NCBI GenBank assembly: GCA_035692185.1
Contig: DASSIE010000010.1
Location: 2,879-66,878, forward strand
Direction: 5' to 3'
Length of the DNA: 64,000 nt
DNA from: Patescibacteria group bacterium
GTDB lineage: Bacteria > Patescibacteriota > Microgenomatia > UBA8517
Both the position numbers and the translations under genes were made by a program. The number at the start of each line of letters is the position of its first letter. Position 1 is the first letter of the stretch. The notes under the pieces were generated by a model. That model had not been told where the DNA came from, made no database searches, and worked only from the letters and a program-made list of their open reading frames with translations. Of this stretch, positions 2,190 through 47,933 are shown piece after piece.

Positions 2190-2782
2190 AAAAATTAATT
2201 TGGTTTACAGCAATTTTTGTTCTATTTTTAGTTTTTATTGTTCCAGGAATCCTAGCACTTGGAATTAAGTTAATACCAAACGGAGATCAGCCTGGGTATG
2301 ATTCAAACAGACGATTAAGTATTTATGGGGTTAGAGCAGTAAGCCAAAAATTCGTATCAGATAAAAATAACTTGTCTGCAGTTGGGACCTCGCTAAGAAA
2401 TCCAAATTTAAAAAACAAGAAGAATATAATTTTCAATTTATATGATCTAAATAATAATTTAATTCGAACATCAATTTTAAATGGTCAAAATGTTCAAGAT
2501 GGTGACTTTACGAAGTTTGTATTTGATCCAATTAAAGACTCCAAAGACAAAGTTTATATTTTTAACATTTCCTCCCCCGAAACAGGTCCTGAAGAAACAA
2601 CAGAAGTTTTTTACGGGCAAGACATGCCCGCCTGGATAGTTGAATATATATATGATGAGAAAATTCACACAGGAGGAATACCTATCGTCTTATATACAAA
2701 ACCCAACAGTAAATTTGAAGTAATAAAAGAAATTTATTCTAATTGGCTTTCCAGACTTCTACATCTGAATTCTCAAAGATAA
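2186..2782 (+). CDS. Membrane-anchored protein of unknown function (N-terminal TM, extracytoplasmic domain)
   Basis: 198 aa with a single N-terminal hydrophobic helix (LIWFTAIFVLFLVFIVPGILALGI) followed by a polar N/K/D-rich domain. I recognise no catalytic motif. The start overlaps the upstream stop. Confidence 0.3.
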   Translation: MKKLIWFTAIFVLFLVFIVPGILALGIKLIPNGDQPGYDSNRRLSIYGVRAVSQKFVSDKNNLSAVGTSLRNPNLKNKKNIIFNLYDLNNNLIRTSILNGQNVQDGDFTKFVFDPIKDSKDKVYIFNISSPETGPEETTEVFYGQDMPAWIVEYIYDEKIHTGGIPIVLYTKPNSKFEVIKEIYSNWLSRLLHLNSQR

Positions 2783-4631
2783 GTGATAAACCAATTTCCC
2801 TTGGACTTATATTTGGCTTTTGAATCTTCGGAAAATAAACTATATTTGCGTTTGTTTTAGAAAAAGCCTTATCAACATCGCTCGCCCCTTTGCTTTCGAA
2901 AAATAACCTTTTTATTTCAAGTCTACTTTTGTAATCATATCCCATTATGTCGTTTTGTTCGTAATCGTCCATATAAACTCTTCTTGAACTAAAGGTTGGT
3001 ATATATGAAGTGTCAAACCAATCCCAGATATTTGGGGTAGAATCTTTTAGGTTAAGGTCTGAGTTATATGGCGGGGTTAAGATAACATCGTTTTCATTTG
3101 TATTTTCTTTAACAAACCTTAAAGCTTCTAATTCGTTTTTTGATATTTTTGCAAATGCAGGACGTGAATATAGTTCATGATACAAACCAGCTTGAGTAGG
3201 AACCATCAGAACAACCAATAATGTGGAAAACAAAATCTGATAAACAGGGTACTTGAGTAGTTTTAAAGAATAATTTGTCGAAATTCCAGCTAATATTCCA
3301 AATAGTAATACAAAATACTGTAAGAATTGACTAGTGTTGCCCGCAACTCCCCTTTGTAGAAAAAGTAGTGGGAGAACTATAGATAAAATTATTACGAGCA
3401 TAAAAATTAAAGAAAAGTAATTTTTGAAAGATAATTTTGCTTGTTTTATAAAATCAAATAGCCCTATAAACCTCATACCCAAATTCCCAAAGAAGAAAAT
3501 TGTAAGTCCCAACCCTTCCAAAAAAATTACTCTTTTTAAGTTATGTTCATAAACATATGTCTGACGTTTTAATTCCCAATCTAAAAAGTTCAAGCGAGAC
3601 GGTTCAACAATCATTGTTCTTATGTACCACCATGGCTGAAATATTAAAAATGATGCTCCACCAGAAGAGTTTGGAAAATATAAGATAGCAGCCAGTATTC
3701 CACTCAAAAAAGTAAGTAGAAGTAACTGTGGAGTTTTACGATCACCAGATTGCAAGCTTTGCTTATTTTTAATAAGTTGCCAAATTCCAGTCATCCCGAT
3801 CGCCAAAAGTAGAACAAAGCCGGCATATATCTTAAAAGCAGACAGGGTTCCAAGGAGAAGAACACAAATTGCAAAGTTGAGCTTCCCCTTTTCCCTTAGT
3901 AGTTTTAGAAGAAAATATAGCCCAGTTAAAACCAAAAAGTTAGATATTATTTGTGGTGGGTTTCCGCTTGAACTTTGGGGTTGGGTGGCCCAGAAAATAC
4001 TTTCTCCAGCAATAGTTTTATTTTTAAGGTAGGTAACTATAAAACCAAAACTTCCAGCAAAATACGTAAATACAACAGCCCAAATACTTGCACCGAAACT
4101 ACCTGTCATTCTTTTCGTCAAATAGAATGCAGAAGCACCTAAAAACAGAGAGTAAATTAGCGGAAACACTCTAAAATATAAATCTAAATTAGATATTGGG
4201 GTATATTTGCTAACCATTGCCGGTAAAACATCAGAAAAGAAATGATAATTTACAAGTTTTTGTCCTGCAAAACTTGGATTTTGAAGCGGATATCCCTTTT
4301 TAATTTCTTCCATTAAGGCAATATGCCAAGTAGCGTCATGTCCATGTGCACTCCAAAAAACAAGGTCACCATTTTGATAGGTTCCACTTGGCGAAATCAC
4401 TGCAAGCTGTATGGCAATTCCAACCACAAAAACTAAAATCGTTATAATGGTTTGGAAATCAAACTTTAATCTAATATTTCTAACCTCAGCGATAAAAGGT
4501 TTATATATCCAGATTGTAAGAATTATCGATATAGGAATAATTAGAAAAGGAATGTGTAAAACTATAAAGATGTATGAAAGTAGAGTAAGAGCTACAAAAC
4601 CGACTATTCCACCCATTAGTAATTTCTCCAT
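2739..4631 (-). CDS. Polytopic membrane protein, putative GT-C-like glycosyltransferase (paralog of 1..1011)
   Basis: 630 aa, many TM helices, then a C-terminal soluble domain sharing motifs with ORF 1..1011. Its 3' end overlaps that of the convergent 2186..2782 gene. Confidence 0.4.
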   Translation of the reverse strand: MEKLLMGGIVGFVALTLLSYIFIVLHIPFLIIPISIILTIWIYKPFIAEVRNIRLKFDFQTIITILVFVVGIAIQLAVISPSGTYQNGDLVFWSAHGHDATWHIALMEEIKKGYPLQNPSFAGQKLVNYHFFSDVLPAMVSKYTPISNLDLYFRVFPLIYSLFLGASAFYLTKRMTGSFGASIWAVVFTYFAGSFGFIVTYLKNKTIAGESIFWATQPQSSSGNPPQIISNFLVLTGLYFLLKLLREKGKLNFAICVLLLGTLSAFKIYAGFVLLLAIGMTGIWQLIKNKQSLQSGDRKTPQLLLLTFLSGILAAILYFPNSSGGASFLIFQPWWYIRTMIVEPSRLNFLDWELKRQTYVYEHNLKRVIFLEGLGLTIFFFGNLGMRFIGLFDFIKQAKLSFKNYFSLIFMLVIILSIVLPLLFLQRGVAGNTSQFLQYFVLLFGILAGISTNYSLKLLKYPVYQILFSTLLVVLMVPTQAGLYHELYSRPAFAKISKNELEALRFVKENTNENDVILTPPYNSDLNLKDSTPNIWDWFDTSYIPTFSSRRVYMDDYEQNDIMGYDYKSRLEIKRLFFESKGASDVDKAFSKTNANIVYFPKIQKPNISPREIGLSLIFENSDVEVWKAN

Positions 4632-4658: not shown

Positions 4659-6104
4659 ATGATACGCAAAACGACATTAATACTTATTGGGATTGTTTTT
4701 TTTGGCTTTTTGCTGCGAGCTTATAGAATTACATCACTTCCAATGTATGGCGACGAGCTTACGATGGTATATGACACTTATTCTATCCTTAAAACCGGAA
4801 TGGACGCGACAGGTGAGCGTATGCCACTTACATTTAGAATGGGAGCGGGGCGACCTGGAGGATATATTTATGCCTCAATTCCATTTGTGAGCATTTTTGG
4901 CCCAACCGAACTTGGCATAAGATCATTATCTGTTTTGTCTGGTTTAGGAATAATAGTTTTAATGTTCTTTTTGGCTAAAAAGCTGTTTGATAATGAGAAA
5001 ATAGGACTTATTGCTAGCTTTTTGACATCAATTTCGATGTGGGATATCTATCTCTCAAGAGGTGGTTTTGAAGCGCACTTCGCCCTCTTATTAGCCTTAC
5101 TTGGAGTTACAGCCTTTATATATAGTAAATATTTAATTTGGGCGATCGCTTGGGGACTAACAATATTTACATATCCAACATTTAAATTAACCCTCCCAAT
5201 AATTTTTCCATTATTAATTTGGTTTTGGGAACATAAATTTGGAGAACATAAATTTGGAGTACATAAAACAATAGTTAAAAATAAATTATTTGTTGCATCT
5301 TTGATAGTTCTGACGCTTTTTGGAGTGTTGGTAATTCGTGAATCTTTAAAGGGAAGAAGCGAAGAGCGTTTTTTGAGTTCGAATATTTTCTCTGACTCAG
5401 GAATGAAGGAGCAACTAATTCAAAAGATAAATGACGAGCGAAACCTATCTAGTCTTCCAAAATTTATTAAACCAGTCTTTTACAATAGACCTTACGAATA
5501 TTTTAGAATCGTATCAGAAAATTATATTGATAATTTGTCACCCGGATTCCTTTTTCTTAGGGGTGATGGTAATCCAAGACACAATTCGGGAGAGTGGGGA
5601 ATGTTATATTTTATAGAATTCCCGATTTTACTGGTTGGAATATATAAACTTTGGATTGAAAAAAAGAAAGACATAATTTTTCTTGGAGGGTGGATTCTCA
5701 TTACACCCCTGGCGACAATGCTAATGGGTGAACCGCACGCCTTAAGAAGCGATTTTATGCTACCGCCAATACTATTGATAACTTCATATACTTTATCGAA
5801 ATTCACCAGAAAACAATTTTATTTTATTTTCGGACTGATGTTTTTACAACTCATTCTTATACTAAACGCGATTTATTTTTTGTCTCCGAACAAATTTGCA
5901 AGTTTTTGGTCGGCAGATGCAAAAACCGAGTCATTGAAGGCAATTAATAGTTCAAAAAAAGATAAAAAAGTTACACTTTCTACAAAAATAGATAATATCG
6001 AATATGCGTATGAAGTTTATGCAAAAATAGATCCGAACTTGGTTATATCTCAATATGGAAAATTCCCAAAAGTTTTTGGGAGTGTTTTGATAGTGGATAA
6101 GTAA
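4659..6104 (+). CDS. GT39/GT83-like (PMT/ArnT-type) polyprenol-phosphate-sugar dependent membrane glycosyltransferase
   Basis: N-terminus LRAYRITSLPMYGDELTMVYDTYSILKTGMDATGERMPLTFRMG carries the DE motif in the first extracytoplasmic loop, as in PMT/ArnT-type GT-C enzymes. About 10 TM helices. Contains an in-frame 15-bp tandem duplication (EHKFGEHKFG). Confidence 0.55.
   Translation: MIRKTTLILIGIVFFGFLLRAYRITSLPMYGDELTMVYDTYSILKTGMDATGERMPLTFRMGAGRPGGYIYASIPFVSIFGPTELGIRSLSVLSGLGIIVLMFFLAKKLFDNEKIGLIASFLTSISMWDIYLSRGGFEAHFALLLALLGVTAFIYSKYLIWAIAWGLTIFTYPTFKLTLPIIFPLLIWFWEHKFGEHKFGVHKTIVKNKLFVASLIVLTLFGVLVIRESLKGRSEERFLSSNIFSDSGMKEQLIQKINDERNLSSLPKFIKPVFYNRPYEYFRIVSENYIDNLSPGFLFLRGDGNPRHNSGEWGMLYFIEFPILLVGIYKLWIEKKKDIIFLGGWILITPLATMLMGEPHALRSDFMLPPILLITSYTLSKFTRKQFYFIFGLMFLQLILILNAIYFLSPNKFASFWSADAKTESLKAINSSKKDKKVTLSTKIDNIEYAYEVYAKIDPNLVISQYGKFPKVFGSVLIVDK
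5229..5267 (+). repeat. 15-bp perfect tandem duplication (gaacataaatttgga x2 plus partial third copy) inside CDS
   Basis: Read directly: 5229-5243 and 5244-5258 are identical, followed by gtacataaa. Encodes EHKFG-EHKFG-VHK in frame. Confidence 0.9.
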
Positions 6105-6111
6105 ACATGAT

Positions 6112-7788
6112 TTACTGCGGAGAAACAATAAAATAAGCTGCGTTACCGTTTGTTAAATAAATCTTTTTAAGAAGCTCACCTTTCTTGAGATCTTTTTCAG
6201 GCAAGTTCCACGGACTACCAACGAACAAAACCCCCTTTTTGAATTTATCATCTCCCCATTCAATATGTCTAAATGTGTATTTATCAAATTTAAAATACGG
6301 ACTCTCAATATCTGTTCCCAGGGTTTTAGTCTCATCTTGATACCTCTTAGGGTCATATTTTAAATAAAAACGAACATATAGAAATGGATTAGCAACCATG
6401 TTTGGTGCATCAACACCATGTCGTTGGTCAAAAACAATCTCTTTATAATCATCTTGATGCTTTCCGATATAGAGAACTGCTTGTTTTAAACCTTCGTCGT
6501 AATATTCTCCCCTATCTCTTGGAAAATGTACTGAAAAAACCAGAAAAGCATGTATTAGATTTATGATGATAAATAAACCGTATAAAGAACTAATTAAAAA
6601 TTTTAAATATTTGTAGTTAACTGTTTTTATCCATTTAATAAATTCAATAAGTCCCAAAGTTGTTATTAATAATAGAATTGGGCCTATATGAAGAAGCCTA
6701 CCTCCATGCTGCTGATTATTGGTTAATGAGTCAGGAATAATTCCAACCAATAACCAAATAATAAAGATATTCTTATGTGGAATCTGTTTTTTAATAAAGG
6801 AAAATATACCCAGAATAAGCCAGGGTATTTCAAAAATATACAAAAGCCCCAAGCCAAAAATGTCGTATGTTGTCATGTGTAGACCGTTAAAGAAAAGAAA
6901 ATCAAAATCGATATAATTTAGATATCTTTTAAGCCAAAATATAAACAGAAGCGGTAAATCATTTATAGAATCAAAATATTTTACCAAGACATAACGGCTG
7001 AAATCGATATCATTACTTATTAGGACCATTGACAGTCTGGTTCCAGCTCCTTGGAAAAATGTCGAATAAATAAGTGGACTAACCAGTAAGAGACAAGTAA
7101 ATAAAAATAGTGCTAACCATTTGTAATTACCTTTTAATTTTTTGATATTAAAGGCAACTACTATACCTATAAATAACGGTACAAAAAACCTTTGCGCAAA
7201 AGAAGTGTACATTGTTAGTACTAAGAAAAAAGCAGACAGTAAAGAAAACCACCTTTTCCCGTCAAGAAACATCATGTAAAACCAGATGCCGAGGAATGCG
7301 AAAAGACTACCAATCAAAGGTTCATACGCAAACCTTGAGTAAAATATAAACCATGCGGAAACTGCCATTAAAAAAGATCCAACAAATGCAAGTTTTTTGT
7401 CTTTTAATATATATAGTAAAAAAAGATAAAAGATTGGAATAAATATAGTTCCAAAAAAAGCATTTGGAAATCTTACAGCAAAATCGGTTAAGCCAAGTGC
7501 CTTTATGGGTAGTAACATTAAATAAGCTGGTACTGGGTTTTTGTAGTCACCAACAGACTTAAAAACTAAAGGCAAAAATTTTCCAAATTCATCCCTGCCG
7601 GTTTTAAGTATTGAATACGCTGAATAACCAAAAGATATTTCGTCCCCGTTAAGGCTTGGAGGGTTTGCCGCAATTTTGTAGAACCTTAAAAATCCACCCA
7701 AAAAAGTAATTCCAAATAATATTAGTAAAGTTGTTAATATATTTTTCTTCATATTTTTACGGTTCTGTAATTTGGTATTTATCACCAA
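6112..7788 (-). CDS. GT39/GT83-like (PMT/ArnT-type) membrane glycosyltransferase
   Basis: N-terminus FLRFYKIAANPPSLNGDEISFGYSAYSILKTGRDEFGKFLPLVFKSVGDYKNP is the same signature as the + strand paralogs. Polytopic. The C-terminal domain motif (YLKYDPKRY...) is conserved with the paralogs. Confidence 0.55.
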   Translation of the reverse strand: MVINTKLQNRKNMKKNILTTLLILFGITFLGGFLRFYKIAANPPSLNGDEISFGYSAYSILKTGRDEFGKFLPLVFKSVGDYKNPVPAYLMLLPIKALGLTDFAVRFPNAFFGTIFIPIFYLFLLYILKDKKLAFVGSFLMAVSAWFIFYSRFAYEPLIGSLFAFLGIWFYMMFLDGKRWFSLLSAFFLVLTMYTSFAQRFFVPLFIGIVVAFNIKKLKGNYKWLALFLFTCLLLVSPLIYSTFFQGAGTRLSMVLISNDIDFSRYVLVKYFDSINDLPLLFIFWLKRYLNYIDFDFLFFNGLHMTTYDIFGLGLLYIFEIPWLILGIFSFIKKQIPHKNIFIIWLLVGIIPDSLTNNQQHGGRLLHIGPILLLITTLGLIEFIKWIKTVNYKYLKFLISSLYGLFIIINLIHAFLVFSVHFPRDRGEYYDEGLKQAVLYIGKHQDDYKEIVFDQRHGVDAPNMVANPFLYVRFYLKYDPKRYQDETKTLGTDIESPYFKFDKYTFRHIEWGDDKFKKGVLFVGSPWNLPEKDLKKGELLKKIYLTNGNAAYFIVSPQ

Positions 7789-8842
7789 AATATCTTTCGG
7801 CCCTAATTTTTTCTCGATGTTGCAAATCGTTTAATACAGTGAGCGATTGGAATATTATTAAAATAATTGTAAGAGAGAGTAAATACTTTGTTGATCTGTT
7901 TTTAGCTTCAAATAAAATATTAATGCCATGAGAAATGATAAACAGCACTATTGGAAAAAATAAAATTAAACGATTTAACGGAGCAAATTCGTTTGCAAGA
8001 ATAGCAGGAACAACTAAAACAGTTGAGATAAATAATAATTTTACAGTCTCTTTTTTTTGGAGTAACTTATATAAACCAAAGCCAAACGGTATTATAAAAC
8101 CAAATAAAATTGGCGGACTAAATGAGAAACCTAAAAGTTTATATTCGGGTGTAAAAAAGGCGATTGGACTTAAGAGCGTCGTATAGCGCAATACCAGCGA
8201 TTCTGCAAAGAATATATACTTATTTTCAGAAATTCTAGCTAAGTTTTTGAAACCATCTTGGCTTGCATTGCCTTGATAACGATTAGCCGTATTAACGAGT
8301 GAAGGATCTTCAAATATTTTTACTTCGGCACTGAAGCTACTTACATTTATATTTATAAAAATAGGAAATGTTAGTATTGCCAAAAAAATCACAGAGGTTT
8401 TGATTTGATTGAAACTAACCAACTTCGAGATTAATAGTAATAATAAAATTAGAGGAATAAATATCAAGAAGATAGAAGATATGTACATTGCAATTCCTCC
8501 AGCTACAATAATCAAAATGTTTCCCAACTTTACCTTGTCATTATTAGTCAGAATCACTCCGTAAATAACGGCGAAGGTCAAAAAGAGTAAGAACAGGTAT
8601 AATGAATGTGCGTATGCCAGGTACCACCCCCATGGTGAAACAAGGTAGATTAAGGGAGCGATTAATGAAAAAGGTTTTTTAAACAATGTTTTACTAATTG
8701 CCCAAATAAGTAGTGGAATTAAAATTGGGTAAATAATATAAAAAATATCGTTAACATTGACAATCTTATGTATTAGTTCTGCAAAAAGAAAATTTTGGGC
8801 AGTATAATAAGGAATCATATATGACAAGATTATCATACCCAA
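7757..8842 (-). CDS. Polytopic integral membrane protein (unknown; possibly GT-C-like or polymerase-like)
   Basis: 361 aa, almost entirely hydrophobic helices. No recognisable soluble catalytic motif. Overlaps neighbours at both ends. Confidence 0.3.
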   Translation of the reverse strand: MGMIILSYMIPYYTAQNFLFAELIHKIVNVNDIFYIIYPILIPLLIWAISKTLFKKPFSLIAPLIYLVSPWGWYLAYAHSLYLFLLFLTFAVIYGVILTNNDKVKLGNILIIVAGGIAMYISSIFLIFIPLILLLLLISKLVSFNQIKTSVIFLAILTFPIFININVSSFSAEVKIFEDPSLVNTANRYQGNASQDGFKNLARISENKYIFFAESLVLRYTTLLSPIAFFTPEYKLLGFSFSPPILFGFIIPFGFGLYKLLQKKETVKLLFISTVLVVPAILANEFAPLNRLILFFPIVLFIISHGINILFEAKNRSTKYLLSLTIILIIFQSLTVLNDLQHREKIRAERYFGDKYQITEP

Positions 8843-10299
8843 AAGTAATTGTCTTTCTTTTTGTTCTTGTCACAACCTTCATTCTTAGGGCTCATAATTA
8901 CGAAAAAGTCCCAACACCAAACCATCTTGATGAGATGTTGTATGCCTGGTCAGGCCTTAGCCTGATTGAAACTGGAACCCCAGTATCGTGGTCAACTTTG
9001 GATTATCCTAAAAGAGCTGAAGTATTCAAAGGAGTCATAAATTACAAAGGGGGGAAACCCGATGCCTCAGTTACTCTTTATAAACCTTGGTTGGACGAGC
9101 CACCTCTTTTTTCGCTCTTGGTTGGTGAATTTGCTCACTTATACCATGCAGATAGGAATCAGTTTGTTCCATCATCTTACATACGTATGCCAATGGTGAT
9201 TATTAGCACATTAACCTCAGTTTTAGTTTTTTTAATTGCATTTGAGGTTTCAGGGTTTGTAAGCGGAATTCTTGCAATGACCATATACGGGTTTACCCCA
9301 ATTTTTGTATTTGCGTCCCGTAACGCAATGCCTGAAACTTTAATTGCATTCCTTTTTGCAGTGGCGATATTTTTGATAATAAAATTTTGGAAAAATCCAA
9401 GTATTTATTATATTTTACCAATTCCAATTTTAGCTGGAATTGCTGGCCTTTCTAAACCTACCGGTTTTTTCATTATCCCAATCGCGATTTTTATGGTTTT
9501 TTGGCGAAAATATCAAGATAACCAGATTGTGTTAGGGTTAAAATATTGTACATATTTGCTTTTGGCAACTTTGCCGTTCATTGGGTTTTTCTATTGGTAC
9601 GGTTTTCATTTTGACGCTGAGATTTTTAAGATAATTACCACCATTCAGTCCAATAGGCCAGTAGGATTTGCCAGTCTTGCATGGTTTTTTATTAGTCCAG
9701 CATTTGAAACTAAGATACTGATTGATGGTTGGTATATATTTTGTTTAGTTTCAGCAATATTTTTAATGTTCTCTGCCTCTCAGTTTAGTGAGAAAGACAA
9801 ACTACGCAAAATTGTTGTTTTTGCATTTGTCTATTGGGTCAGTGTCGTAATGGTTTCGGGAGGGGAGCGAGATTTACTTCCCTGGTATAGATTTCCAATA
9901 TTCCCATTTATGGCAATTTTAGGCGCTTGGGGAATTGAATATATACTCAAGAATGTTAATTTATTTACTAGTTTTATTGCAGTTGGGCTTCTTCTAGGTA
10001 ATCGGGTGCTTCTTGTTAACGCATTTCACCCTAATATTTCTGCTACGAATTATAGAATTATTTTCGCATTATTAATGGCCCCGTCAATAATAAATACAAT
10101 ATTTCAAAAGAAATGGCTTGCAAAGCTGTCAAAATTTGTTGTTGGGTTGGCAATTATTACCGGCCTTATTATAAACTTGATATATATCTATATGGCCTTT
10201 GAAATTGAATGCCAGAGTAAGACTTGCACTTTTGTTCCAACGACACCGTTATCAGTTGTGCATTTTCCAATAATATCTAAATTTATGCCAAAATATTAA
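8821..10299 (+). CDS. GT-C fold membrane glycosyltransferase, divergent GT39-like
   Basis: N-terminal TM then a loop with HLDEMLYAWSGLSLIETGTPVSW (DE motif), then many TM helices (492 aa). First gene of a co-directional, translationally coupled run to 19895. Confidence 0.4.
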   Translation: MTRLSYPKVIVFLFVLVTTFILRAHNYEKVPTPNHLDEMLYAWSGLSLIETGTPVSWSTLDYPKRAEVFKGVINYKGGKPDASVTLYKPWLDEPPLFSLLVGEFAHLYHADRNQFVPSSYIRMPMVIISTLTSVLVFLIAFEVSGFVSGILAMTIYGFTPIFVFASRNAMPETLIAFLFAVAIFLIIKFWKNPSIYYILPIPILAGIAGLSKPTGFFIIPIAIFMVFWRKYQDNQIVLGLKYCTYLLLATLPFIGFFYWYGFHFDAEIFKIITTIQSNRPVGFASLAWFFISPAFETKILIDGWYIFCLVSAIFLMFSASQFSEKDKLRKIVVFAFVYWVSVVMVSGGERDLLPWYRFPIFPFMAILGAWGIEYILKNVNLFTSFIAVGLLLGNRVLLVNAFHPNISATNYRIIFALLMAPSIINTIFQKKWLAKLSKFVVGLAIITGLIINLIYIYMAFEIECQSKTCTFVPTTPLSVVHFPIISKFMPKY

Positions 10300-10304
10300 C
10301 TTAT

Positions 10305-11927
10305 ATGAGAAAAATGCTTTTAATTTTAATAGTTGGAGTTGCCTTTTTTTTACGTGTTAACAAAATTACTCAAGTTCCACCTTCTTTAAACTGGGATGAA
10401 GTATCAATTGGCTATAATGCTTATTCAATACTAAAAACCGGCAGGGATGAATGGGGTAAATTTTTACCGGTTCACTTTAAGTCGTACGGGGAATATAAAT
10501 TACCCGCTCAGATATACGCTTCAATTCCGGCAATTGCAATATTTGGGCTTAATGAATTTGGCGTACGGATAACGCCGGTTATTTATGGCACTTTGACGAT
10601 ACTATTTATATATTTTTTGGTGCAGGAAATGTTTGGGAATAAGTATGTGTCATTAACTTCAGCATTTCTCCTGGCAATTTCTCCGTGGCATTTACAGCTA
10701 ACCAGGGCATCATTTGAGTCTTCATTTTCAGTTTTCTGGGTAGTTATCGGAGCATGGCTTTTTGTTAAAGGGTTCAGCGACAAAAAGTATTGGCTATGGT
10801 CGATATTGCCGTTCATTATATCAATATATACCTACAACGCCGCAAGAGTTTTTACACCGATCTTTTTATTTACAGTTTTTATTGTTTACAGAAGGGATAT
10901 CTTAAAAAATATAAAAATTGTCATTTTTGGCCTTTTAATTTTTGCGATATCGATGATTCCTCTAGCTAATTTTTTTGTAAGTGGGGAAGCTACGGCAAGA
11001 TTTAAGTTGGTTAGCATCACAAATGACCCAGGTTTTGTTTTAAGAACAAATGAGGCTAGGGGAAATACCAAGCTAGTGGCTCCGATGCCTAAATTAATCC
11101 ATAACAAAGTAACACACTATGTCTATGTATTTGTTGGAAATTATTTAAGTCATTTTTCTCCAGACTTTCTCTTCATTAGCGGCGCTGGGCATAAACAACA
11201 ACATGTGCAAGGAATTGGAGAGCTTTACTGGATTCAAGCACCATTTATACTAATTGGACTTTATTATCTTTTTAAAAATAAAAACAAATGGAGGTGGCTA
11301 ATTGTTTCATGGTTATTGATAGCATTTATTCCAGTTGCAGTTACTGTAGACAGTATTCCAAATGCATTAAGGACGATATTGGCGGTGATTCCTTACGCAA
11401 TACTCACGGCACTTGGCGTTTGGCAGATTTCTAACCATAGAATTATTATATTAGTATCACTATCAATTTTAATTATCAGCTTTTCAGGATATTTAAATAA
11501 TTACTACAACGTTTATCCAAAGAGCTATTCTCGTGACTGGCAATATGGTTACAAACAGGTAGCTTCATATATAAAAGCTAATTATAATAATTACGATTTA
11601 ATAGTTTTTAGTCGTACTTATGGGGAACCCCATATGTTTACTTTATTTTTCCTAAACTGGGATCCAGCAAGTTTCCAGAACAATCCAAATTTAGATAGAT
11701 ATGAGGCATACAGATGGATTTGGGTTTCTAAGTTCGACAAATTTTATTTCCCAGATTTAGGAGACAGTGGCACTAAATTTGAAGATGTTAAGAAGCAAAA
11801 CAAGGGTAAGAAAATACTGTTTATTGGTAAAGATGGCGATTTTCCCGACTCAGTCAAAAAATTATTGACAGTAAATTTTTTGAACGGCAATCCAGCATTT
11901 GAAATTGTTGAAATAAATGAAAAATAA
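10305..11927 (+). CDS. GT39/GT83-like (PMT/ArnT-type) membrane glycosyltransferase
   Basis: FLRVNKITQVPPSLNWDEVSIGYNAYSILKTGRDEWGKFLPVHFKSYGEYKLP. Polytopic. Conserved C-terminal domain (DWQYGYKQV...YGEPHMFTLFFL). Confidence 0.55.
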   Translation: MRKMLLILIVGVAFFLRVNKITQVPPSLNWDEVSIGYNAYSILKTGRDEWGKFLPVHFKSYGEYKLPAQIYASIPAIAIFGLNEFGVRITPVIYGTLTILFIYFLVQEMFGNKYVSLTSAFLLAISPWHLQLTRASFESSFSVFWVVIGAWLFVKGFSDKKYWLWSILPFIISIYTYNAARVFTPIFLFTVFIVYRRDILKNIKIVIFGLLIFAISMIPLANFFVSGEATARFKLVSITNDPGFVLRTNEARGNTKLVAPMPKLIHNKVTHYVYVFVGNYLSHFSPDFLFISGAGHKQQHVQGIGELYWIQAPFILIGLYYLFKNKNKWRWLIVSWLLIAFIPVAVTVDSIPNALRTILAVIPYAILTALGVWQISNHRIIILVSLSILIISFSGYLNNYYNVYPKSYSRDWQYGYKQVASYIKANYNNYDLIVFSRTYGEPHMFTLFFLNWDPASFQNNPNLDRYEAYRWIWVSKFDKFYFPDLGDSGTKFEDVKKQNKGKKILFIGKDGDFPDSVKKLLTVNFLNGNPAFEIVEINEK

Positions 11928-13263
11928 TTTTATTTTCGCCTTTGTTTTATTTTTATTTCTTGTCTCAAGAATTTATGGAATTGCAGAAATTCCAAAGTCT
12001 GTATATTGGGATGAGGCATCAATTGGATATAATGCATTTTCAATTGCAACTGACTTAAAAGATGAATGGGGAGAAAAGTTGCCATTACATTTTCGAGCAT
12101 TTGGAGAATTTAAACTCCCAGTTTATATTTATACGGTAGCGATTTTTGTAAAAGCAATTGGATTAAATGAATATGCAATAAGACTTCCGGCAGTTTTTTA
12201 TTCATTGGGCTCATTGATACTTGTCTATTTATTAACAAAAAAAATTACAGACAATGAACACACTGCAATTTTTGCAAGTTTTATTCTTATTTTTTCCCCT
12301 TGGTTTTTTATATTTTCAAGAACCGGGTATGAGACAACGGCAGGCCTTTTTTTCTTCTTGTTAGGAACCTACCTTTTTCTTGAGCATACCAAAAAGGGTA
12401 TTTATATTCTCTTTGGAATAATGTCTTTCATTTTGTCATTTTATAGCTATAACTCTTTTAGAGTTATTATCCCGATATGGTTAAGTTTAATGCTGATTTA
12501 CACATACAGTAAAAAGAACATCCCTATAATTATTATTTCGATATCAATTTTTTTGGTTAGTTTAATTCCTGTTTATAGACTTTATAAATTTGATTCGGGG
12601 GGTGCTCGCTTCGCCCAAGTTGAAATTACTAGCAAATTTGATTTTATTAAAAATTATGTTGCCCATTTTTCTCCAAACTTTCTTTTTCTAAAAGGGGACA
12701 CAAATCCTCGCAGCCAAATTCCGGGTCATGGTCAACTTTATTTGTTTGAATTACCACTTTTGCTCCTTGGTTTAGTTGCAATCATTAAGAGCAAAAAAGC
12801 ATTATATTACATACCTTTAATAATTCTTATTTTGGCTCCAATTCCGGCCTCTCTCACTCGTGAGTCGCCACATGCATTAAGATCCCTTCTCGCGGCTCCT
12901 GCTTTTGCAATGATGTCCGCATTAGGAATATATTTTCTGGCGGCCCATTTTAAAAAATACTCAAGCCTAATTGTCTTATTTGTAATAATTTGTTATTACC
13001 TATCCTTTGAGTCATACATGACATCTTTTATAACAAAATACCCATCTCTTTCTGCTTCTGATTGGCAATATCAGTATAAAGAGATATTTGCGACGCAAAA
13101 AAGTGGTAATGTTTCAGATAAATATGCTCAGCCATATATTTTTGCCCTTTATTATTTAAAGTACCCTCCTCAAAAGTTTAGAGATGAAGTTAAATTAAAC
13201 CCAATTAACGATTGGGGGTTTTCTAAAGTCTCATCATTTAACGGATTCAAATTTATAAAATGA
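11917..13263 (+). CDS. GT39/GT83-like (PMT/ArnT-type) membrane glycosyltransferase
   Basis: IAEIPKSVYWDEASIGYNAFSIATDLKDEWGEKLPLHFRAFGEFKLP. C-terminus DWQYQYKEI...PYIFALYYLKYPP. Overlaps the upstream gene. Confidence 0.55.
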   Translation: MKNNFIFAFVLFLFLVSRIYGIAEIPKSVYWDEASIGYNAFSIATDLKDEWGEKLPLHFRAFGEFKLPVYIYTVAIFVKAIGLNEYAIRLPAVFYSLGSLILVYLLTKKITDNEHTAIFASFILIFSPWFFIFSRTGYETTAGLFFFLLGTYLFLEHTKKGIYILFGIMSFILSFYSYNSFRVIIPIWLSLMLIYTYSKKNIPIIIISISIFLVSLIPVYRLYKFDSGGARFAQVEITSKFDFIKNYVAHFSPNFLFLKGDTNPRSQIPGHGQLYLFELPLLLLGLVAIIKSKKALYYIPLIILILAPIPASLTRESPHALRSLLAAPAFAMMSALGIYFLAAHFKKYSSLIVLFVIICYYLSFESYMTSFITKYPSLSASDWQYQYKEIFATQKSGNVSDKYAQPYIFALYYLKYPPQKFRDEVKLNPINDWGFSKVSSFNGFKFIK

Positions 13264-14825
13264 ATAAACTGAAACTAGTTGCCTTATTTTTTATTTTTAT
13301 TTTGGCTGCTGTTTTAAGGTTTTATAAAATTGACAAAGTTCCAGCCTCGCTTAATTGGGATGAGGTAGCGGCTGGTTATAATGCTTACACAATTGCCAAT
13401 TGGGGAGCGGATGAGTATGGTAAAAAGTTCCCAATAGTTTTTAAAAATTTTGGAGACGACAAACACCCTGTTCATATCTATATTACCGCGGCAGTTGTGA
13501 AAATATTTGGATTTTCAGATTATTCAACTCGTGCAGGTAGTGCACTTGTCGGCATGCTTATGGTTGTTGCAATTTATTTTCTTGCAAAAGAAATATTTAA
13601 AAGTGAACTCGCGGGAATTTTATCAAGTTTATTTTTTGCGGTTTCTCCATATGCAATACATTTTTCTAGAGGTTTATGGGAAGCAAATTTTGCGCTTTTT
13701 TTTATGGTTGCCGGAGTTACCGCTTTTTACTTAGGACTTAGGAAACAAAATTTTCTTATTCCGTTATCGTTTTTATTTTGGGGATTATCTTTTTTTTCGT
13801 ATCATTCCGCAAAAATTGTTGTTCCTCCATTAGTTTTATTTCTACTAGTAACTCATTTTAAAGAATTTATTATAAATAAAAAAAATTTGCTTTGGGCGAT
13901 ACTAATAACAATATTTTTTGCAGGCCTCATTATAAAGGAGCCTAGAATATTAGGATTTGCCAGAATTAATCAAACAAGATTTCCTGAAGAAGTAACTCAA
14001 AAATATGGTGGTGAGTTTGGAACAATTGCCCACAATTATAAAGACTATTTTACATATTCATATTTATTTGAAAAGGGAGATCAAACCCCAAGAGGTTCGG
14101 TAAAAGTGATTGGCGAATTTTACAGAATAGATTTTATTCTTTCTCTTGTTGGACTTTCTGTTCTTTTTGTCAAAAAGAAATGGGAAGTTTTGACTATTTT
14201 GTTTTCCTGGCTGTTACTCGCCCCAATTCCAGGTGCTGTATCTTCGGTTGACCCAGGTGCAACAAGGGGGATATTTATGCTAGCCCCGATTTTACTCCTT
14301 TCTGCATATGGAGCAACATCAATTGTACAAATGTTAAAACAAAATTGGGCAAAGTATTTATCAATTGTAGTTATATTAATATTTTTGGGATGGGAAGCTT
14401 TAAACTTTATAAATTACTATTTCAATACTTATCCCGTAAAAGATGCCATTGAATGGCAATATGGGATGAAAGACTCAGTTGCCTATGCTCAGAAGCACTC
14501 CGATTATAGCCTTGTATATATGGACAAAATAAGACAACAGCCATATATTTTCTTCCTTTATTACTTAAAAGTCCCACTTCCCGAGCTCTTGCGTTCGGTT
14601 AAATATGACCAAACAATATCTAGTAGTTACAATACAGTCTCTTCTTTTGGAAAGTACAATTTTGGAAATTGGGATCCAATAGAAAGTTATCCTTCTGCTG
14701 ATATTTTATACATTATTACACCCAGTTTTTATTCAGGGCTAAGATATATATCAAGCTTTGTCGTCCGCAAACTGGTAAAATATCCAGACGGCACTGATGC
14801 CTTCTATTTAGTATCTGGAAAATGA
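13260..14825 (+). CDS. GT39/GT83-like (PMT/ArnT-type) membrane glycosyltransferase
   Basis: FYKIDKVPASLNWDEVAAGYNAYTIANWGADEYGKKFPIVFKNFGDDKHP. C-terminus EWQYGMKDS...PYIFFLYYLKVP. ATGA overlap with the upstream gene. Confidence 0.55.
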   Translation: MNKLKLVALFFIFILAAVLRFYKIDKVPASLNWDEVAAGYNAYTIANWGADEYGKKFPIVFKNFGDDKHPVHIYITAAVVKIFGFSDYSTRAGSALVGMLMVVAIYFLAKEIFKSELAGILSSLFFAVSPYAIHFSRGLWEANFALFFMVAGVTAFYLGLRKQNFLIPLSFLFWGLSFFSYHSAKIVVPPLVLFLLVTHFKEFIINKKNLLWAILITIFFAGLIIKEPRILGFARINQTRFPEEVTQKYGGEFGTIAHNYKDYFTYSYLFEKGDQTPRGSVKVIGEFYRIDFILSLVGLSVLFVKKKWEVLTILFSWLLLAPIPGAVSSVDPGATRGIFMLAPILLLSAYGATSIVQMLKQNWAKYLSIVVILIFLGWEALNFINYYFNTYPVKDAIEWQYGMKDSVAYAQKHSDYSLVYMDKIRQQPYIFFLYYLKVPLPELLRSVKYDQTISSSYNTVSSFGKYNFGNWDPIESYPSADILYIITPSFYSGLRYISSFVVRKLVKYPDGTDAFYLVSGK

Positions 14826-15682
14826 AGAAACTCTCAATAGTACTGGCTACAAGAAATGAGCAAGAAAACTTAGCAAGATGTCTGGAGTCTGTTAAGGGGT
14901 TTGCAGATGAAATTATTGTTGTAGATGAATACTCTACAGACAAAACAGTTGAAATTGCCAAAAAATACGGGGCAAAAGTTTTTCTTGAACCACATCATGC
15001 TGTTTTTCATATAACAAAGCAAAAAGCATTAGATAAGGCTACGGGGGAGTGGGTACTCCAACTTGATGCAGACGAAGTGATATCTGATGAGCTTGCAAAA
15101 GAGATTAAATTAGCCATTAGCCATCAGTCATTAGCCATTAGCCCCAAAAAACAAAGACTGTTTAATCGACACCAAAGATTAATAGAAAATAGAGACGGTC
15201 TGATAGGTAAAAAAACTGGGGAGATAGTGGGCTATTTTATTGCACGGCGCAACATGTTTTTAGGTAAACCATTAATTCATGGTGGTGTATACCCCGATGG
15301 TGTTATAAGGCTTGTGAAAAATGGCAAGGCACATTTTCCTCAAAAGTCAGTTCATGAACAGATAGAGCTTGATGGAGAAGTCTATTGGCTTTCAAACGAC
15401 ATGTTGCATTACGACTCTCCAACTTTTGAAAGGTACCTCACCCGTTTAAACAGATATACAGATTTGCAGGCAGTCGAGTTAGAAGAAAATAAAGTCTCAA
15501 AAGGATTTTTCGGTCTTTTTCAATATACAATATACAAACCCCTGTATACCTTTTTAAATTTATACATTCGTCACCTTGGTTTCCTTGACGGTATGCGCGG
15601 TTTTGTGTGGGCATTATTTTCATCACTGCGTTATCCAATAGCATATTTTAAATATTGGGTAGAGAAAGGTAAAGACAAATGA
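14822..15682 (+). CDS. GT2 family glycosyltransferase (paralog of 56513..57238)
   Basis: LSIVLATRNEQENLARCLESVKGFADEIIVVDEYSTDKT...QLDADE, with C-terminal FLDGMRGF motif. Carries an extra in-frame LAISHQSLAIS repeat relative to its paralog. Confidence 0.6.
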   Translation: MKKLSIVLATRNEQENLARCLESVKGFADEIIVVDEYSTDKTVEIAKKYGAKVFLEPHHAVFHITKQKALDKATGEWVLQLDADEVISDELAKEIKLAISHQSLAISPKKQRLFNRHQRLIENRDGLIGKKTGEIVGYFIARRNMFLGKPLIHGGVYPDGVIRLVKNGKAHFPQKSVHEQIELDGEVYWLSNDMLHYDSPTFERYLTRLNRYTDLQAVELEENKVSKGFFGLFQYTIYKPLYTFLNLYIRHLGFLDGMRGFVWALFSSLRYPIAYFKYWVEKGKDK

Positions 15683-16686
15683 AAATAGCAATCGATAGCA
15701 GTCCGCTTACAAGTGGACATAAGATTAGAGGAGTAGGTTTTTATACTAGAAATTTAATAGCAGCGCTTGGAGACAATGTTGAGGCTGTTGATTTTAGTAA
15801 AGCAAATTTGAGTAAATACGATGTTATTCATCTACCATATTTTAATCCATTTTTTATCGACATACCTTTTGTTACTAAGCCAAAGTTAGTAGTAACAATT
15901 CATGACACAATTCCGTTGATCTATCCGGATATTTACAAACCTGGAATAAAGGGAAGAATTAGATTTTTTATTAATAAGTTAATCCTCAAAAGGGTAAGCG
16001 CGGTAATAACTCTTACAGAAACCTCCAAAAAAGATATCGTTAGGTTATTGGGAATTCCCGCTAAAAAAGTTTTTCCAATTTTCTTAGCTCCGGCGGTAAG
16101 GCCGAAAATTGTAAATAACGAGAAAGATAGGATTAGGAGGAAATATAATCTTCCTGAAAAATATGCTTTCTATGTAGGTGATATAAACTATGTAAAAAAC
16201 ATTCCAAGGATGGTGGAAGCTTGTAAAAAGGCGAAAATAGTACTTGTCATGTCTGGTAAACAAGTAAAAGACATAGAAAATCAAGATTTAAATCACCCAG
16301 AATTAGCGCATCTAAAAGGTATCAATTGGTCAGGGGTTATTAGGTTGGGGTATGCCCCAGATGAGGATGTGCCTGTGATATTTAGCATGGCAAGCGTCTT
16401 TGTACACCCCGCTTTGTATGAAGGCTTTGGTATAACAATAATAGAGGCAATGTCGTATGGAGTTCCGGTGGTTGCTGGTAAGGCACAGGCCTTAGTAGAA
16501 ATAGGTCAAGGCGGTTGTCTGTTCGCCAATCCAAAAAGTACCAACGACATCTCTGAAAAAATATCTGAAGTTCTTACAAACAAAACTCTTAGAAACCAAT
16601 TAATTGAAAGTGGAAAAGTGCTTGCTAAAAGTTACTCTTGGGAGAAAACTGCAAAAGAAACTTTAGAAGTTTACCGCCATGTATAA
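15679..16686 (+). CDS. GT4 family glycosyltransferase (GT-B, retaining)
   Basis: C-terminal EGFGITIIEAMSYGVPVV signature of Glycos_transf_1/GT4. Confidence 0.65.
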   Translation: MKIAIDSSPLTSGHKIRGVGFYTRNLIAALGDNVEAVDFSKANLSKYDVIHLPYFNPFFIDIPFVTKPKLVVTIHDTIPLIYPDIYKPGIKGRIRFFINKLILKRVSAVITLTETSKKDIVRLLGIPAKKVFPIFLAPAVRPKIVNNEKDRIRRKYNLPEKYAFYVGDINYVKNIPRMVEACKKAKIVLVMSGKQVKDIENQDLNHPELAHLKGINWSGVIRLGYAPDEDVPVIFSMASVFVHPALYEGFGITIIEAMSYGVPVVAGKAQALVEIGQGGCLFANPKSTNDISEKISEVLTNKTLRNQLIESGKVLAKSYSWEKTAKETLEVYRHV

Positions 16687-17824
16687 AAAAATCACTCTTT
16701 CGTTTTTGATTTGGCGTGTTGCACTTTTTTTAATTGCTTTTTTGGCTATTTATATTATCCCTGTCTATGGTGCTAGATTTCCGTATGTAGATAGGGTATT
16801 GGAAATTACACACCTTCCAAACTGGATTTGGGGATTTGGTGGTTTTGATGGTGTTCATTATCTTCGTATTGCCCAAGATGGTTATTTTGCTCAATTTTCA
16901 CAGGCATTTTTCCCATTATTTCCAATTTTGATTAAGGTTTTTTCATCTATTTTCCCGAGAGTTCCCAATCTTGATACCAATATTTTTACAGACCCTGCAT
17001 ATTTTTATTCAGGATTGATTCTCGCTAATTCATTTTTTCTCGGTTCCCTTTATATTTTATACAAGTTAATACTTATTGATTTCAAGAAGGATGTAGCATT
17101 TTTGACAATTATCCTACTTTTAGTATTTCCAACTTCTTTTTATTTCGGCGCGGTTTACACTGAGTCACTATTTTTGCTTCTCGCAGTGTTATCTGTTTAC
17201 CTTGTTAGGAAGAATAACTTCTTTTGGGCGGCTGTTCTAATTTCACTTGCAACTGCAACAAGAGTTTTTGGTGTGTTACTAATTCCTTTGTATATCATTG
17301 AAGTTGTTAAAAATAAAAATAAACTGAATTATCTTTGGACATTAATCACCCCTCTAGGCATATTGAGCTATATGTATTTTTTAAAAACTGAATTTAATAA
17401 TCCAATTTCTTTTTTAACAAGTCAGCCACTTTTTGGCGCTGGTCGTTCTGGAGGAGAAATAATTCTATTGCCCCAAGTCATATACAGATACTTAAAGATA
17501 TTTGTATCGATTGATCTATCTACATTAGGTTTTTTAAATGCATTTTTAGAATTTACATTTGCGCTCGTTCCATTGACATTTCTGATAGTATTTTTTAAGA
17601 AAATGAGGTTAAGTTACTGGATTTTTTCAGTTGGTACACTTTTGTTGCCAACATTCACTGGAACGTTTTCATCCATGCCAAGATATGTCCTAATCCCTAT
17701 GGTTTTACTTTTCCCAACTCTAATTATCCGATTTAGAAAGTATATTAAACCTGCTATTCTTATTTCTTGTATCCTAGGAGTTATCCTGACAATTTTATTT
17801 ATCAGAGGCTATTGGGTTGCATGA
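16679..17824 (+). CDS. Polytopic mannosyltransferase-like membrane protein (PIG-V/Gpi18-like, GT-C)
   Basis: The first loop motif FGGFDGVHYLRIAQDGYFAQFSQAFFPLFPIL resembles the D..HY..IA..GY...AFFPL signature of the PIG-V family. 381 aa with about 9 TM helices. Confidence 0.4.
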   Translation: MYKKITLSFLIWRVALFLIAFLAIYIIPVYGARFPYVDRVLEITHLPNWIWGFGGFDGVHYLRIAQDGYFAQFSQAFFPLFPILIKVFSSIFPRVPNLDTNIFTDPAYFYSGLILANSFFLGSLYILYKLILIDFKKDVAFLTIILLLVFPTSFYFGAVYTESLFLLLAVLSVYLVRKNNFFWAAVLISLATATRVFGVLLIPLYIIEVVKNKNKLNYLWTLITPLGILSYMYFLKTEFNNPISFLTSQPLFGAGRSGGEIILLPQVIYRYLKIFVSIDLSTLGFLNAFLEFTFALVPLTFLIVFFKKMRLSYWIFSVGTLLLPTFTGTFSSMPRYVLIPMVLLFPTLIIRFRKYIKPAILISCILGVILTILFIRGYWVA

Positions 17825-17828: not shown

Positions 17829-17862
17829 GAGTGTTTACAAATGATGAGTGTTTACAAATGAT
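17829..17862 (+). repeat. 17-bp perfect tandem duplication (gagtgtttacaaatgat x2) at the 5' end/leader of the flippase gene
   Basis: Read directly: 17829-17845 equals 17846-17862. It lies between the upstream stop (17822-17824) and the probable ATG ATG start at 17858/17861. Confidence 0.9.
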
Positions 17863-29082: not shown

Positions 29083-29592
29083 AGGAGTCTCTACAGGTTC
29101 AACTTCATATTTAAGTTTGTTCTTAACAAATATTTTTTTCCATTGATCAGGACGTCTAAAAGTAAACGGAATGCGCATAAACGGGTTATGAATTTTATTT
29201 AAGATGTAATCAGATATTGTTCCAATTAATGTTGGTTGGACCTCAAAGATTAGAACCTGCTTTGATACTCTTAAGGCGTCAAGGATTAATTTTTCCTGGA
29301 TAGTGTATGGAATATGATGAAGAACATCATTAAACATTGCACTTTTAAACTCATTTCTTTTGAAAGGTAAGGAATCCTCCTTTTTAATTAGTTTAAACGC
29401 GATTTTGTTTGTGAGATATTTTAAGGTATCGCATCCATATATCTTTAAATCGAAATCCTCCGCTATCTGCTTACTCACAACTCCATTTCCGCAACCAACA
29501 TCTACGACCTTTTCGTTTGATTTTAGCCACCTTTGATAAGCCTTAATGATTAACTTACCTCGTATTTTTGATGTGTAATCAGCGAGTGCCAT
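29038..29592 (-). CDS. Class I SAM-dependent methyltransferase
   Basis: [14 protein letters not shown] motif I, FNDVLHHI post-II. 184 aa. 3' end overlaps the convergent tri-domain gene by 45 nt. Confidence 0.55.
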
Positions 29593-47715: not shown

Positions 47716-47933
47716 TTTATTGGATTTTATTAATAATTATTATTATTTTTACAAAATATAAAGTTGCTAGTGGGACTCTCTTTCAAGCAGGTTTAATAAT
47801 GATGCTAGTTGGAGCTTTTTTTGATATTTTTAAACTAACTGATATTTCAGAAATGTTGTTAAGTGCGGCATTAATTCTTTGGGTTGTTGGAATTGTCGGA
47901 ACCTGTATAGATCTATATAAACATAAATTATGA
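47712..47933 (+). CDS. Small hydrophobic membrane protein (73 aa), unknown
   Basis: Two to three predicted TM helices. Translationally coupled (ATGA) between two giant paralogs. Confidence 0.3.
   Translation: MIYWILLIIIIIFTKYKVASGTLFQAGLIMMLVGAFFDIFKLTDISEMLLSAALILWVVGIVGTCIDLYKHKL

Follow-up and report, generated by a model that had tools for sequence, protein, structure and literature searches.

An ordered array of GT-C-type glycosyltransferase genes in a Patescibacteria glycan locus and its conservation across Microgenomates

Why would a patescibacterial genome keep a run of similar membrane-bound glycosyltransferase (GT) genes side by side, and on what do their products act? The question is raised by a 64,000-nucleotide stretch of contig DASSIE010000010.1, part of a Patescibacteria metagenome-assembled genome (MAG), which is called the window here. 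The array occupies positions 4659 to 14825, and genes are named below by their lower coordinate. A first-pass annotation described it as a tandem expansion of six GT39/PMT/ArnT-like paralogs, one of them inverted, and read it as an elaborated protein O-glycosylation system. In our analysis this observation was partly confirmed and the interpretation partly supported. We are highly confident that the array genes encode GT-C enzymes with an outward-facing active site. Beyond this, and with only a slight leaning, we favour the explanation that the array is the upstream part of an ancient Microgenomates operon of non-redundant PMT_2/ArnT/Pmt-like GT-C enzymes which extend an extracytoplasmic glycan stepwise.

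The six open reading frames (ORFs) named in the first-pass annotation are all present, with the coordinates given in Table 1, in a window whose G+C content is ~33% throughout. Five of them, 4659(+), 6112(-), 10305(+), 11917(+) and 13260(+), were found to be mutual paralogs. An all-against-all BLASTP comparison of the window ORFs gave 26-33% identity over nearly the full length for these five, and their E-values, which range from 1.5e-18 to 6.9e-74, indicate similarity far beyond chance. The lowest value was obtained for 11917 against 10305 (E 6.9e-74), while 13260 matched the other paralogs at E 1e-31 to 1e-59, 6112 at E 1e-18 to 2e-53 and 4659 at E 1.5e-18 to 3e-48. The N-terminal signature reported for the five genes, a transmembrane (TM) helix followed by P-x-S-L-N-W/G-D-E ... 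G-Y-N/S-A-Y-S-I ... G-x-D-E-x-G-K-x-L-P, is visible in their alignment.

The sixth ORF, 8821, had been counted as a paralog that is divergent but keeps the DE motif. The motif is indeed kept, and the protein scores 43.3 bits with the Pfam family PMT_2, but the relationship is only distant. No BLASTP match between 8821 and the five paralogs was found at E<=1e-3, and hhalign against the family profile gave a weak match (E 0.0019, probability 14.5%, residues 10-231) in which the LDE of 8821 is aligned under the WDE of the family. A seventh, truncated relative at 7757-8842 on the reverse strand had been missed. It matched the family profile with a probability of 95.3% and an E-value of 2.3e-8, residues 35-340 lying on profile positions 99-416, and neither the DE loop nor the C-terminal domain was found in this alignment. 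The C-terminal domain, which had been described as common to all six ORFs, was observed in only four. A hidden Markov model (HMM) of the domain matches 10305, 6112 (E 9e-39) and 13260, all three of which are in the model and so match by construction. In 11917 only the first 79 of the 135 model positions were matched (E 5e-12), and in 4659 and 8821 the HMM found nothing even at E<=10. Similarly, 4659 reaches 562 bits with an HMM of the whole family of which its own sequence is a part. The overlaps of 4-11 nt between genes 10305 through 17824 fit a single operon; a promoter and terminator scan of the region from 2.5 to 20 kb gave counts equal to those in shuffled sequence and was uninformative.

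Structural comparison of the modelled array enzyme gave its highest match values for ALG12 (25.7), AglB (24.8), Pmt4 (23.5), ArnT (23.4) and STT3B (23.2), and the match to ArnT aligned 421 residues, the most of any. Pmt2, ALG9, AftA, PglB, GPI-MT-I, AftD, PIG-U, ALG3, AftB, ALG6, DPY19, PimE and EmbA followed with values from 19.1 down to 10, and the next match, a structure of unrelated fold, had a value of 7. Foldseek returned the same set of GT-C structures. This list establishes the GT-C fold for the predicted structure, and no single GT-C family stands out in it.

The topology was predicted from the AlphaFold2 (AF2) secondary structure together with the positive-inside rule. The model of 10305 has 11 TM helices, and the predicted cytoplasmic loops are all rich in K or R (MRK at the N-terminus, GNK, KGFSDKK, YRRDILKNIK, KNKNKWR and NHR), which places loop 1 (residues 19-83, with D31-E32), the loop at 217-310 and the C-terminal domain on the outer face. 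The other invariant charged residues of 10305 (R88, R134, E138 and R356) also lie on this predicted outer face. After TM11 the model has a soluble extracytoplasmic alpha/beta domain (404-540 in 10305). The predicted topology shows the N-terminus inside, the C-terminus outside and the catalytic Asp-Glu in the first outer loop, as the first-pass annotation had proposed for the DE motif. Pmt and ArnT are described as characterised by a DE motif in loop 1, and the Pmt of Streptomyces as having 11 TM helices (PMC8698208).

Ten residues (D31, D48, G51, P55, Y71, R88, P127, E138, G305 and G371) were found to be conserved in all six array positions across genomes. The agreement between the consensus sequences of the positional groups is highest in TM1 (0.68) and loop 1 (0.59) and falls to 0.35 in the large outer loop (loop 4) and 0.30 in the C-terminal domain, so that the suspected variation of loop regions among the paralogs was observed. 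This pattern suggests a constant catalytic face, while the variable parts, the outer loop and the C-terminal domain, are probably those with which other GT-C enzymes recognise their acceptors. A (D/E)WQY(G) motif was found where the C-terminal domain begins, directly behind the last TM helix, in 10305 (residues 411-415; window positions 11535-11549), 11917 and 13260. It is nearly invariant in the orthologs of 10305 and absent from 6112 and 4659.

How old is the array? Relatives of 10305, the best-conserved gene, were sought with one genome taken per species and were found in at least 571 species genomes. Where the titles among the matches listed are informative, nearly all are Woese-, Davies-, Shapiro- or Gottesmanbacteria, Microgenomates or Microgenomatus, with one Parcubacteria and one Saccharibacteria. 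Many listed MAG records with the locus (L004, L006, L008-L011, L013 and others) are titled 'uncultured Gammaproteobacteria bacterium', which we take to be a mislabel because the loci share the same synteny; it looks systematic for one assembly batch. A search with a profile of the five paralogs added no diversity, as its matches were mostly the 10305 orthologs already obtained with the single sequence.

The gene order was examined in ~60 of these loci, and the array was found there. In a Woesebacteria contig (L001) one-to-one orthologs occur in the same order (identities in Table 1), and GT2, GT4, PIG-V-like, Wzx and GT2 genes come after them as in the window. The recurring core consists of three or more co-directional GT-C genes and then GT2, GT4, PIG-V-like GT-C, Wzx and GT2 genes. 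Between two and eight family members were counted within +-10 kb in the 49 loci with full flanks, most often four and next most often six. When the array positions were numbered from the anchor GT2 directly downstream of the array, the best cross-genome match was found at the same position for 172 of the 176 members in 48 loci, which represent 48 related species genomes. The median identity is 60% to the positional ortholog versus 34% to the most similar paralog of the member's own array, and orthologs of 10305 (D-type) in the species compared are 37-74% identical to the window protein. This positional orthology indicates that the duplications predate the divergence of these lineages and that each copy was kept, and it argues for distinct functions of the copies. 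A recent lineage-specific expansion was considered and rejected on the same positional evidence. The earlier term 'tandem expansion' is therefore misleading, since the copies are old and have positional orthologs elsewhere, and instead of a heavy expansion particular to this genome we found a gene order conserved across Microgenomates.

To which family do these enzymes belong? Five of the six named ORFs exceed the Pfam gathering cut-off for PMT_2 (PF13231; 26.1 bits), for PMT (PF02366; 22.7 bits) or for both. With PMT_2, in addition to 8821, 10305 (43.4 bits), 11917 (30.2) and 13260 (62.9) are above the cut-off, and 4659 (19.6), 6112 (22.7) and 7757-8842 (21.2) are below it. The matches to PMT are all marginal (6112, 24.2 bits; 10305, 29.7; 11917, 22.7, exactly the cut-off; 13260, 31.3), and Pfam gave none for 4659 or 8821. 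No Pfam family other than these two was matched at E<=0.01 by any of the seven proteins, and no STT3 match was found for any protein of the window. The NCBIfam family Agl23 was tried and rejected, as 6112 and 13260 reach only 36-44 bits against a cut-off of 126. In profile searches of PDB sequences the family profiles matched ArnT (5ezm) only, marginally and over TM2-TM7 (E 0.0034 with five sequences, E 0.0015 with 69), no Pmt structure was matched, and searches with 8821, 2739 and a 2739 family profile returned nothing.

The GT39/PMT/ArnT-like class that had been proposed is thus upheld in so far as the GT-C fold and the PMT and PMT_2 matches are concerned. Membership in GT39 or GT83 is not established because the PMT scores are marginal, PMT-associated domains are absent past the N-terminal module, the ArnT match has an E-value of ~1e-3 and there are 11 TM helices, not 13. 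GT39 membership and a protein acceptor are both unproven. The protein of 10305 is identical to NCBI HET7098858.1, a 'glycosyltransferase family 39 protein' encoded on a 74.5-kb contig of a Patescibacteria MAG, and the same automatic label is carried by 8821, 11917 and 13260, so the enzyme class is already in the automatic annotation. For these genes the blanket 'GT39' is too specific, and 'hypothetical protein', the NCBI label on 4659 and 2739, is too vague.

The inverted gene is likewise not alone. As the first-pass annotation had stated, 6112 is inverted, but it is one half of a conserved two-gene module, with 7757-8842(-), which has been flipped in place. The module is co-directional with the array in L012, L015, L018, L024, L028 and L034, and in L018 its site, with the 4659-type gene on one side and the 8821-type gene on the other, is exactly the one that it occupies in the window. 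It is inverted in the window and in L020 and absent from L001-L004. Full-length homologs of 7757-8842 (L012, L015, L018, L020, L024 and L028) have 378-404 aa with an extra N-terminal TM helix (TM1), and 7757-type homologs always lie directly upstream of a 6112-type (B-type) gene, for which reason a spurious antisense ORF was rejected. The window copy lacks TM1, with an in-frame TGA at 8872-8870 upstream of its start, where the gene abuts 8821. The truncation at this junction fits an inversion breakpoint there, and 7757-8842 may have been damaged by the inversion, or it may serve as a partner subunit without catalytic function.

Table 1. Coordinates of the array genes and of other genes described in the text, with the identity of array proteins to their orthologs in the Woesebacteria contig L001.
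Feature	Position	Strand	Basis and remarks	Identity to L001 ortholog
GT87-type (PimE/mannosyltransferase-like) GT-C	1008..2189	+	PF09594 30.2 bits (cut-off 25); upstream of array; syntenic in many loci	
Polytopic membrane protein, divergently transcribed	2739..4631	-	630 aa; flanks array; syntenic in L001-L004 and many other loci	
GT-C paralog A	4659..6104	+	481 aa; GDE motif; most divergent of the five close paralogs	61%
GT-C paralog B	6112..7788	-	558-aa ORF; likely true start is the ATG at 7752; full C-terminal domain	
Truncated GT-C-like paralog	7757..8842	-	361 aa; covers TM2-TM11 only	
Distant PMT_2-type GT-C	8821..10299	+	492 aa; LDE in loop 1; only distantly related to the other five	57%, same position
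GT-C paralog D	10305..11927	+	540 aa; best-conserved member; 11 TM helices; D31-E32 in outer loop 1	72%
GT-C paralog E	11917..13263	+	448 aa; half of the C-terminal domain; start overlaps end of D by 11 nt	70%
GT-C paralog F	13260..14825	+	521 aa; full C-terminal domain; 4-nt overlaps (ATGA) with both neighbours	64%
Cytoplasmic GT2	14822..15682	+	Glycos_transf_2 70.7 bits; directly after array in nearly all ~60 loci	
GT4, conserved core	15679..16686	+	Glycos_transf_1 96.5 bits; synteny	
PIG-V-like (Mannosyl_trans2) GT-C-type, conserved core	16679..17824	+	PF04188 43.3 bits; synteny	
Wzx-type flippase, conserved core	17831..19138	+	Polysacc_synt 43 bits on first half	
GT2, candidate polyprenyl-phosphate sugar synthase	19080..19895	+	Glycos_transf_2 92.3 bits; after Wzx in most loci	
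Three-domain fusion	26626..29082	+	818 aa; NAD-dependent sugar 4,6-dehydratase/epimerase, S-adenosylmethionine (SAM) methyltransferase and GT2 like Dol-P-hexose transferase/AglJ	
PMT_2-like membrane protein	29579..31351	-	~12 hydrophobic segments; weak BLASTP match to 13260 (E 4e-4)	
Three large paralogous membrane proteins	37602..39818, 44170..47715, 47930..50683	+	738-1181 aa; ~9-11 hydrophobic segments each	
PMT_2 protein	57235..58563	+	29 bits, above cut-off	

The genes around the array make the whole 64-kb window a glycan locus. Counting 57235 and 29579, at least 12 putative GT-C enzymes were found in it. Other glycosyltransferases are represented by about ten GT2 and seven GT4 genes, and flippases by two of the Wzx type. 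Five genes are of the NAD-dependent sugar epimerase/dehydratase type and one is for a UDP-GlcNAc 2-epimerase; also present are a NUDIX protein, two hexapeptide acyltransferases and ~10 methyltransferase genes or domains. In a search of PDB sequences 29579 gave only chance-level matches to particulate methane monooxygenase (pMMO). Of the three large paralogous membrane proteins, 44170 and 47930 had no Pfam match, and 37602 matched the N-terminal GT-C domain of the arabinofuranosyltransferase AftD with 28.6 bits. An ORF of at least 429 aa with a hydrophobic N-terminus (~62715-64000, +) continues past the 3' end of the window.

The Wzx gene of the conserved core was found as two ORFs in the same frame, separated by a single in-frame TAA at 18509-18511 in an A/T-rich run. 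Its ortholog in L001 is intact, has 401 aa and matches both halves, and the split in the window could reflect a pseudogene, a sequencing error or readthrough. A second Wzx gene lies at 50638-51921.

Polyprenol-phosphate-sugar synthases had been proposed at 19080, at 54088 and in the C-terminal domain of 26626. AglJ, PpgS, ArnC, PgfS and a Dol-P-hexose transferase are indeed among the closest NCBIfam families of these three GT2 proteins, with matches that run nearly end to end and stay below the cut-offs. For 19080 the sub-threshold matches include PgfS (the best), PpgS and ArnC as well as non-synthase GT2 families such as PgaC. GT2 genes like 54088 occur inside the GT-C array in many related genomes. 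Judged by its domain order, the 26626 fusion would couple sugar modification directly to the loading of a lipid carrier.

The divergently transcribed protein 2739 has an invariant HGHD..WH..MEE stretch in its first outer loop and a paralog at 16-1011(+), also a polytopic membrane protein, with 30% identity. No Pfam match was found for 2739 or its 120 homologs listed, and hhalign against the GT-C family gave a weak result (E 0.003, probability 11%). By these features 2739 may be a further, very divergent GT-C enzyme or a ligase.

On what, then, would the array enzymes act? We favour the stepwise extension of a glycan or lipoglycan, in view of how many enzymes there are, of the fixed order in which they stand and of neighbours of the GT4, Wzx, PIG-V-like, GT87 and AftD-like kinds. 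In this mechanism polyprenyl phosphate would be charged with single sugars on the cytoplasmic side of the membrane by GT2 proteins encoded in the locus (19080-type, 54088-type and the C-terminal domain of 26626), and a Wzx-type or other flippase would carry the lipid-linked sugars across. A lipid-linked oligosaccharide, assembled by GT4 and GT2 proteins, would probably cross in the same step. The GT-C paralogs, which differ from one another in outer loop 4 and in the C-terminal domain, would then add different sugars or linkages successively to a common extracytoplasmic acceptor. The logic would be that of the ALG3/9/12/6/8/10 steps in the lumen of the endoplasmic reticulum (ER) or of the mycobacterial GT-C enzymes for lipomannan (LM), lipoarabinomannan (LAM) and arabinogalactan. 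By analogy with these pathways a cell-envelope glycan or lipoglycan is the most likely acceptor; taken by itself, the statement that the acceptor is a non-protein glycan has about even chances in our estimate.

Several observations weigh against stepwise extension. The core Wzx gene is interrupted by an in-frame stop in the window, and all synthase matches of 19080, 54088 and 26626 are far below the NCBIfam cut-offs. Within the array 4659 fails both Pfam cut-offs and 7757-8842 is without the catalytic loop. The donor sugar, the lipid carrier and the acceptor are all ones that we infer by analogy. Lastly, the fixed gene order would fit parallel action on several acceptors, or hetero-oligomers, equally well.

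The alternative that survives best is the one first proposed, in which Pmt-like O-mannosyl or O-hexosyl transferases with different protein or site specificities, perhaps as hetero-oligomers like yeast Pmt1-Pmt2, form an expanded protein O-glycosylation system. The PMT cut-off is reached, if marginally, by 6112, 10305, 11917 and 13260, the DE in loop 1 and the 11 TM helices are as in Streptomyces Pmt, and the tight gene overlaps would suit the co-assembly of subunits. Furthermore, K65 and R88 are spaced from D31 like ArnT K85/S. coelicolor H159 and ScPmt1 R138/S. coelicolor R182, respectively (PMC8698208). However, in structure Pmt is not matched any better than ALG12, AglB, ArnT or STT3, the PDB sequence search gave only the marginal ArnT match (E 0.0015) and not Pmt, and Pfam shows PMT and PMT_2 only, while the C-terminus is a soluble alpha/beta domain like those of ArnT, ALG12 and AglB. 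The locus consists mostly of polysaccharide-type genes (Wzx, GT4, GT87, PIG-V-like and AftD-like), and all characterised bacteria known to us perform protein O-mannosylation with a single Pmt. Nothing found here favours the Pmt-like explanation, and the context is at least as strong for stepwise glycan or lipoglycan assembly; we consider protein O-glycosylation rather unlikely.

Less probable still is that at least one paralog is an en-bloc transferase of the oligosaccharyltransferase (OST) or ligase type, which would move a flipped polyprenyl-PP-oligosaccharide to protein or cell wall while the others trim or decorate it. This possibility is suggested by the (D/E)WQY(G) motif of 10305, 11917 and 13260, which presumably bears a superficial resemblance to the WWDYG of STT3, PglB and AglB, and by the presence of Wzx flippases and cytoplasmic GTs in a locus with no recognised polymerase or ligase. 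Against it, the alignment shows that WWDYG itself is absent from the array sequences, the window proteins have no STT3 match, and the (D/E)WQY(G) motif is not kept in 6112 or 4659. The sequence profiles indicate PMT_2 and ArnT, and the fold similarity to OSTs, high as it is, is no higher than that to ArnT, Pmt and ALG12. Finally, that the copies are redundant or decaying duplicates without distinct roles, a neutral by-product of tandem duplication, is hardly credible: the missing catalytic loop of 7757-8842 (in the window also its missing TM1), the half C-terminal domain of 11917 and the weak conservation of 4659 would fit, but each position has its own ortholog (median identity 60%), which largely refutes the idea, the catalytic residues are kept in all positions, and the ORFs are intact and translationally coupled.

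Stepwise extension of an extracytoplasmic glycan can be taken further, to an assembly line that defines the Microgenomates lineage. Here five to eight position-fixed GT-C enzymes, together with the PIG-V-like, GT87, AftD-like and Pfam-less membrane proteins, would extend a flipped lipid-linked oligosaccharide whose product is a surface glycoconjugate, and the DE-less 7757-type protein could be a non-catalytic acceptor-binding subunit. We put this forward tentatively and doubt that it holds in all its parts. If true, bacteria would have in this assembly line an equivalent of the ER-luminal ALG pathway or of mycobacterial LAM and arabinogalactan synthesis, and the glycoconjugate would hold a central place in the biology of these ultra-small cells, which are probably episymbiotic. 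The cell envelopes of Patescibacteria (the candidate phyla radiation, CPR) are almost uncharacterised and the organisms largely uncultured, and the locus offers a concrete candidate pathway for the main surface glycoconjugate of Microgenomates. The paralog series, with its constant catalytic loop and its variable outer loop 4 and C-terminal domain, is also useful for the study of acceptor choice in GT-C enzymes. No description of GT-C or PMT arrays in Microgenomates or Patescibacteria was found in the literature, in a search that covered open-access papers only and is not proof of novelty. The enzyme class is already known, and the conserved multi-GT-C operon appears to be undescribed. A paper on Saccharibacteria speculates on PIM-like glycolipids.

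How does the array compare with systems that are known? ArnT (GT83; undecaprenyl-phosphate-L-Ara4N:lipid A transferase; 5ezm/5f15) is the sole structure found by sequence (E 0.0015, TM2-TM7). Like the array proteins, it has an acidic residue in its first outer loop and ends in a soluble alpha/beta domain outside the cytoplasm, and the K-x-P before TM2 of the array is aligned to the K-P-P of ArnT. It differs in being encoded by one gene, where the array has five to seven paralogs, and in its 13 TM helices as against 11, and the host lineage is not known to make lipid A. The Pmt enzymes (GT39; yeast Pmt1/2/4 and actinobacterial Pmt) resemble the array in the DE of loop 1, in the 11 TM helices of S. 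coelicolor Pmt, in the marginal PMT matches of four members and, in yeast, in forming a multi-paralog family. GT39 proteins typically have a C-terminal PMT 4-TM region and, in eukaryotes, a MIR domain, whereas in the array Pfam finds nothing beyond the N-terminal half, neither a MIR nor another PMT-associated domain, and a soluble C-terminal domain is present instead.

The ALG3/9/12/6/8/10 pathway and the mycobacterial PimE/Mpt/Emb/Aft enzymes are similar to the locus in having several distinct, non-redundant GT-C enzymes beside DPM1-like GT2 proteins, a MOP/Wzx-type flippase and cytoplasmic GT4 proteins, and GT87, PIG-V-like and AftD-like genes occur in the same window. Unlike ALG and Emb/Aft, which it does not join at the sequence level, the array is made up of mutual paralogs of a single PMT_2-type family.

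Multi-component transmembrane glycosylation combines a GT-A C55-phosphate-sugar (C55-P-sugar) synthase, a GtrA- or Wzx-type flippase and a GT-C enzyme, including the PMT_2 type (PMC8035078). The Gram-positive systems of this kind (CsbB/GtcA/YfhO, GtlA/GtlB, GacI/J/K/L and CsdAB/CD/EF of L. lactis) share with our locus a candidate GT2 synthase, a Wzx-type flippase, a PMT_2-type GT-C and an outward-facing acidic motif. Of the three component types, GT-C enzymes are present in the window, the flippase is represented by the stop-interrupted core Wzx and the second Wzx at 50638-51921, and the GT-A synthase candidates are below the cut-offs. The Gram-positive systems use one GT-A and one GT-C per modification, as opposed to three to eight GT-C enzymes in fixed order with one or two candidate synthases in a 64-kb glycan locus. 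A fixed series of three to eight paralogous GT-C enzymes that is conserved across a candidate superphylum is a new variation on this three-component theme.

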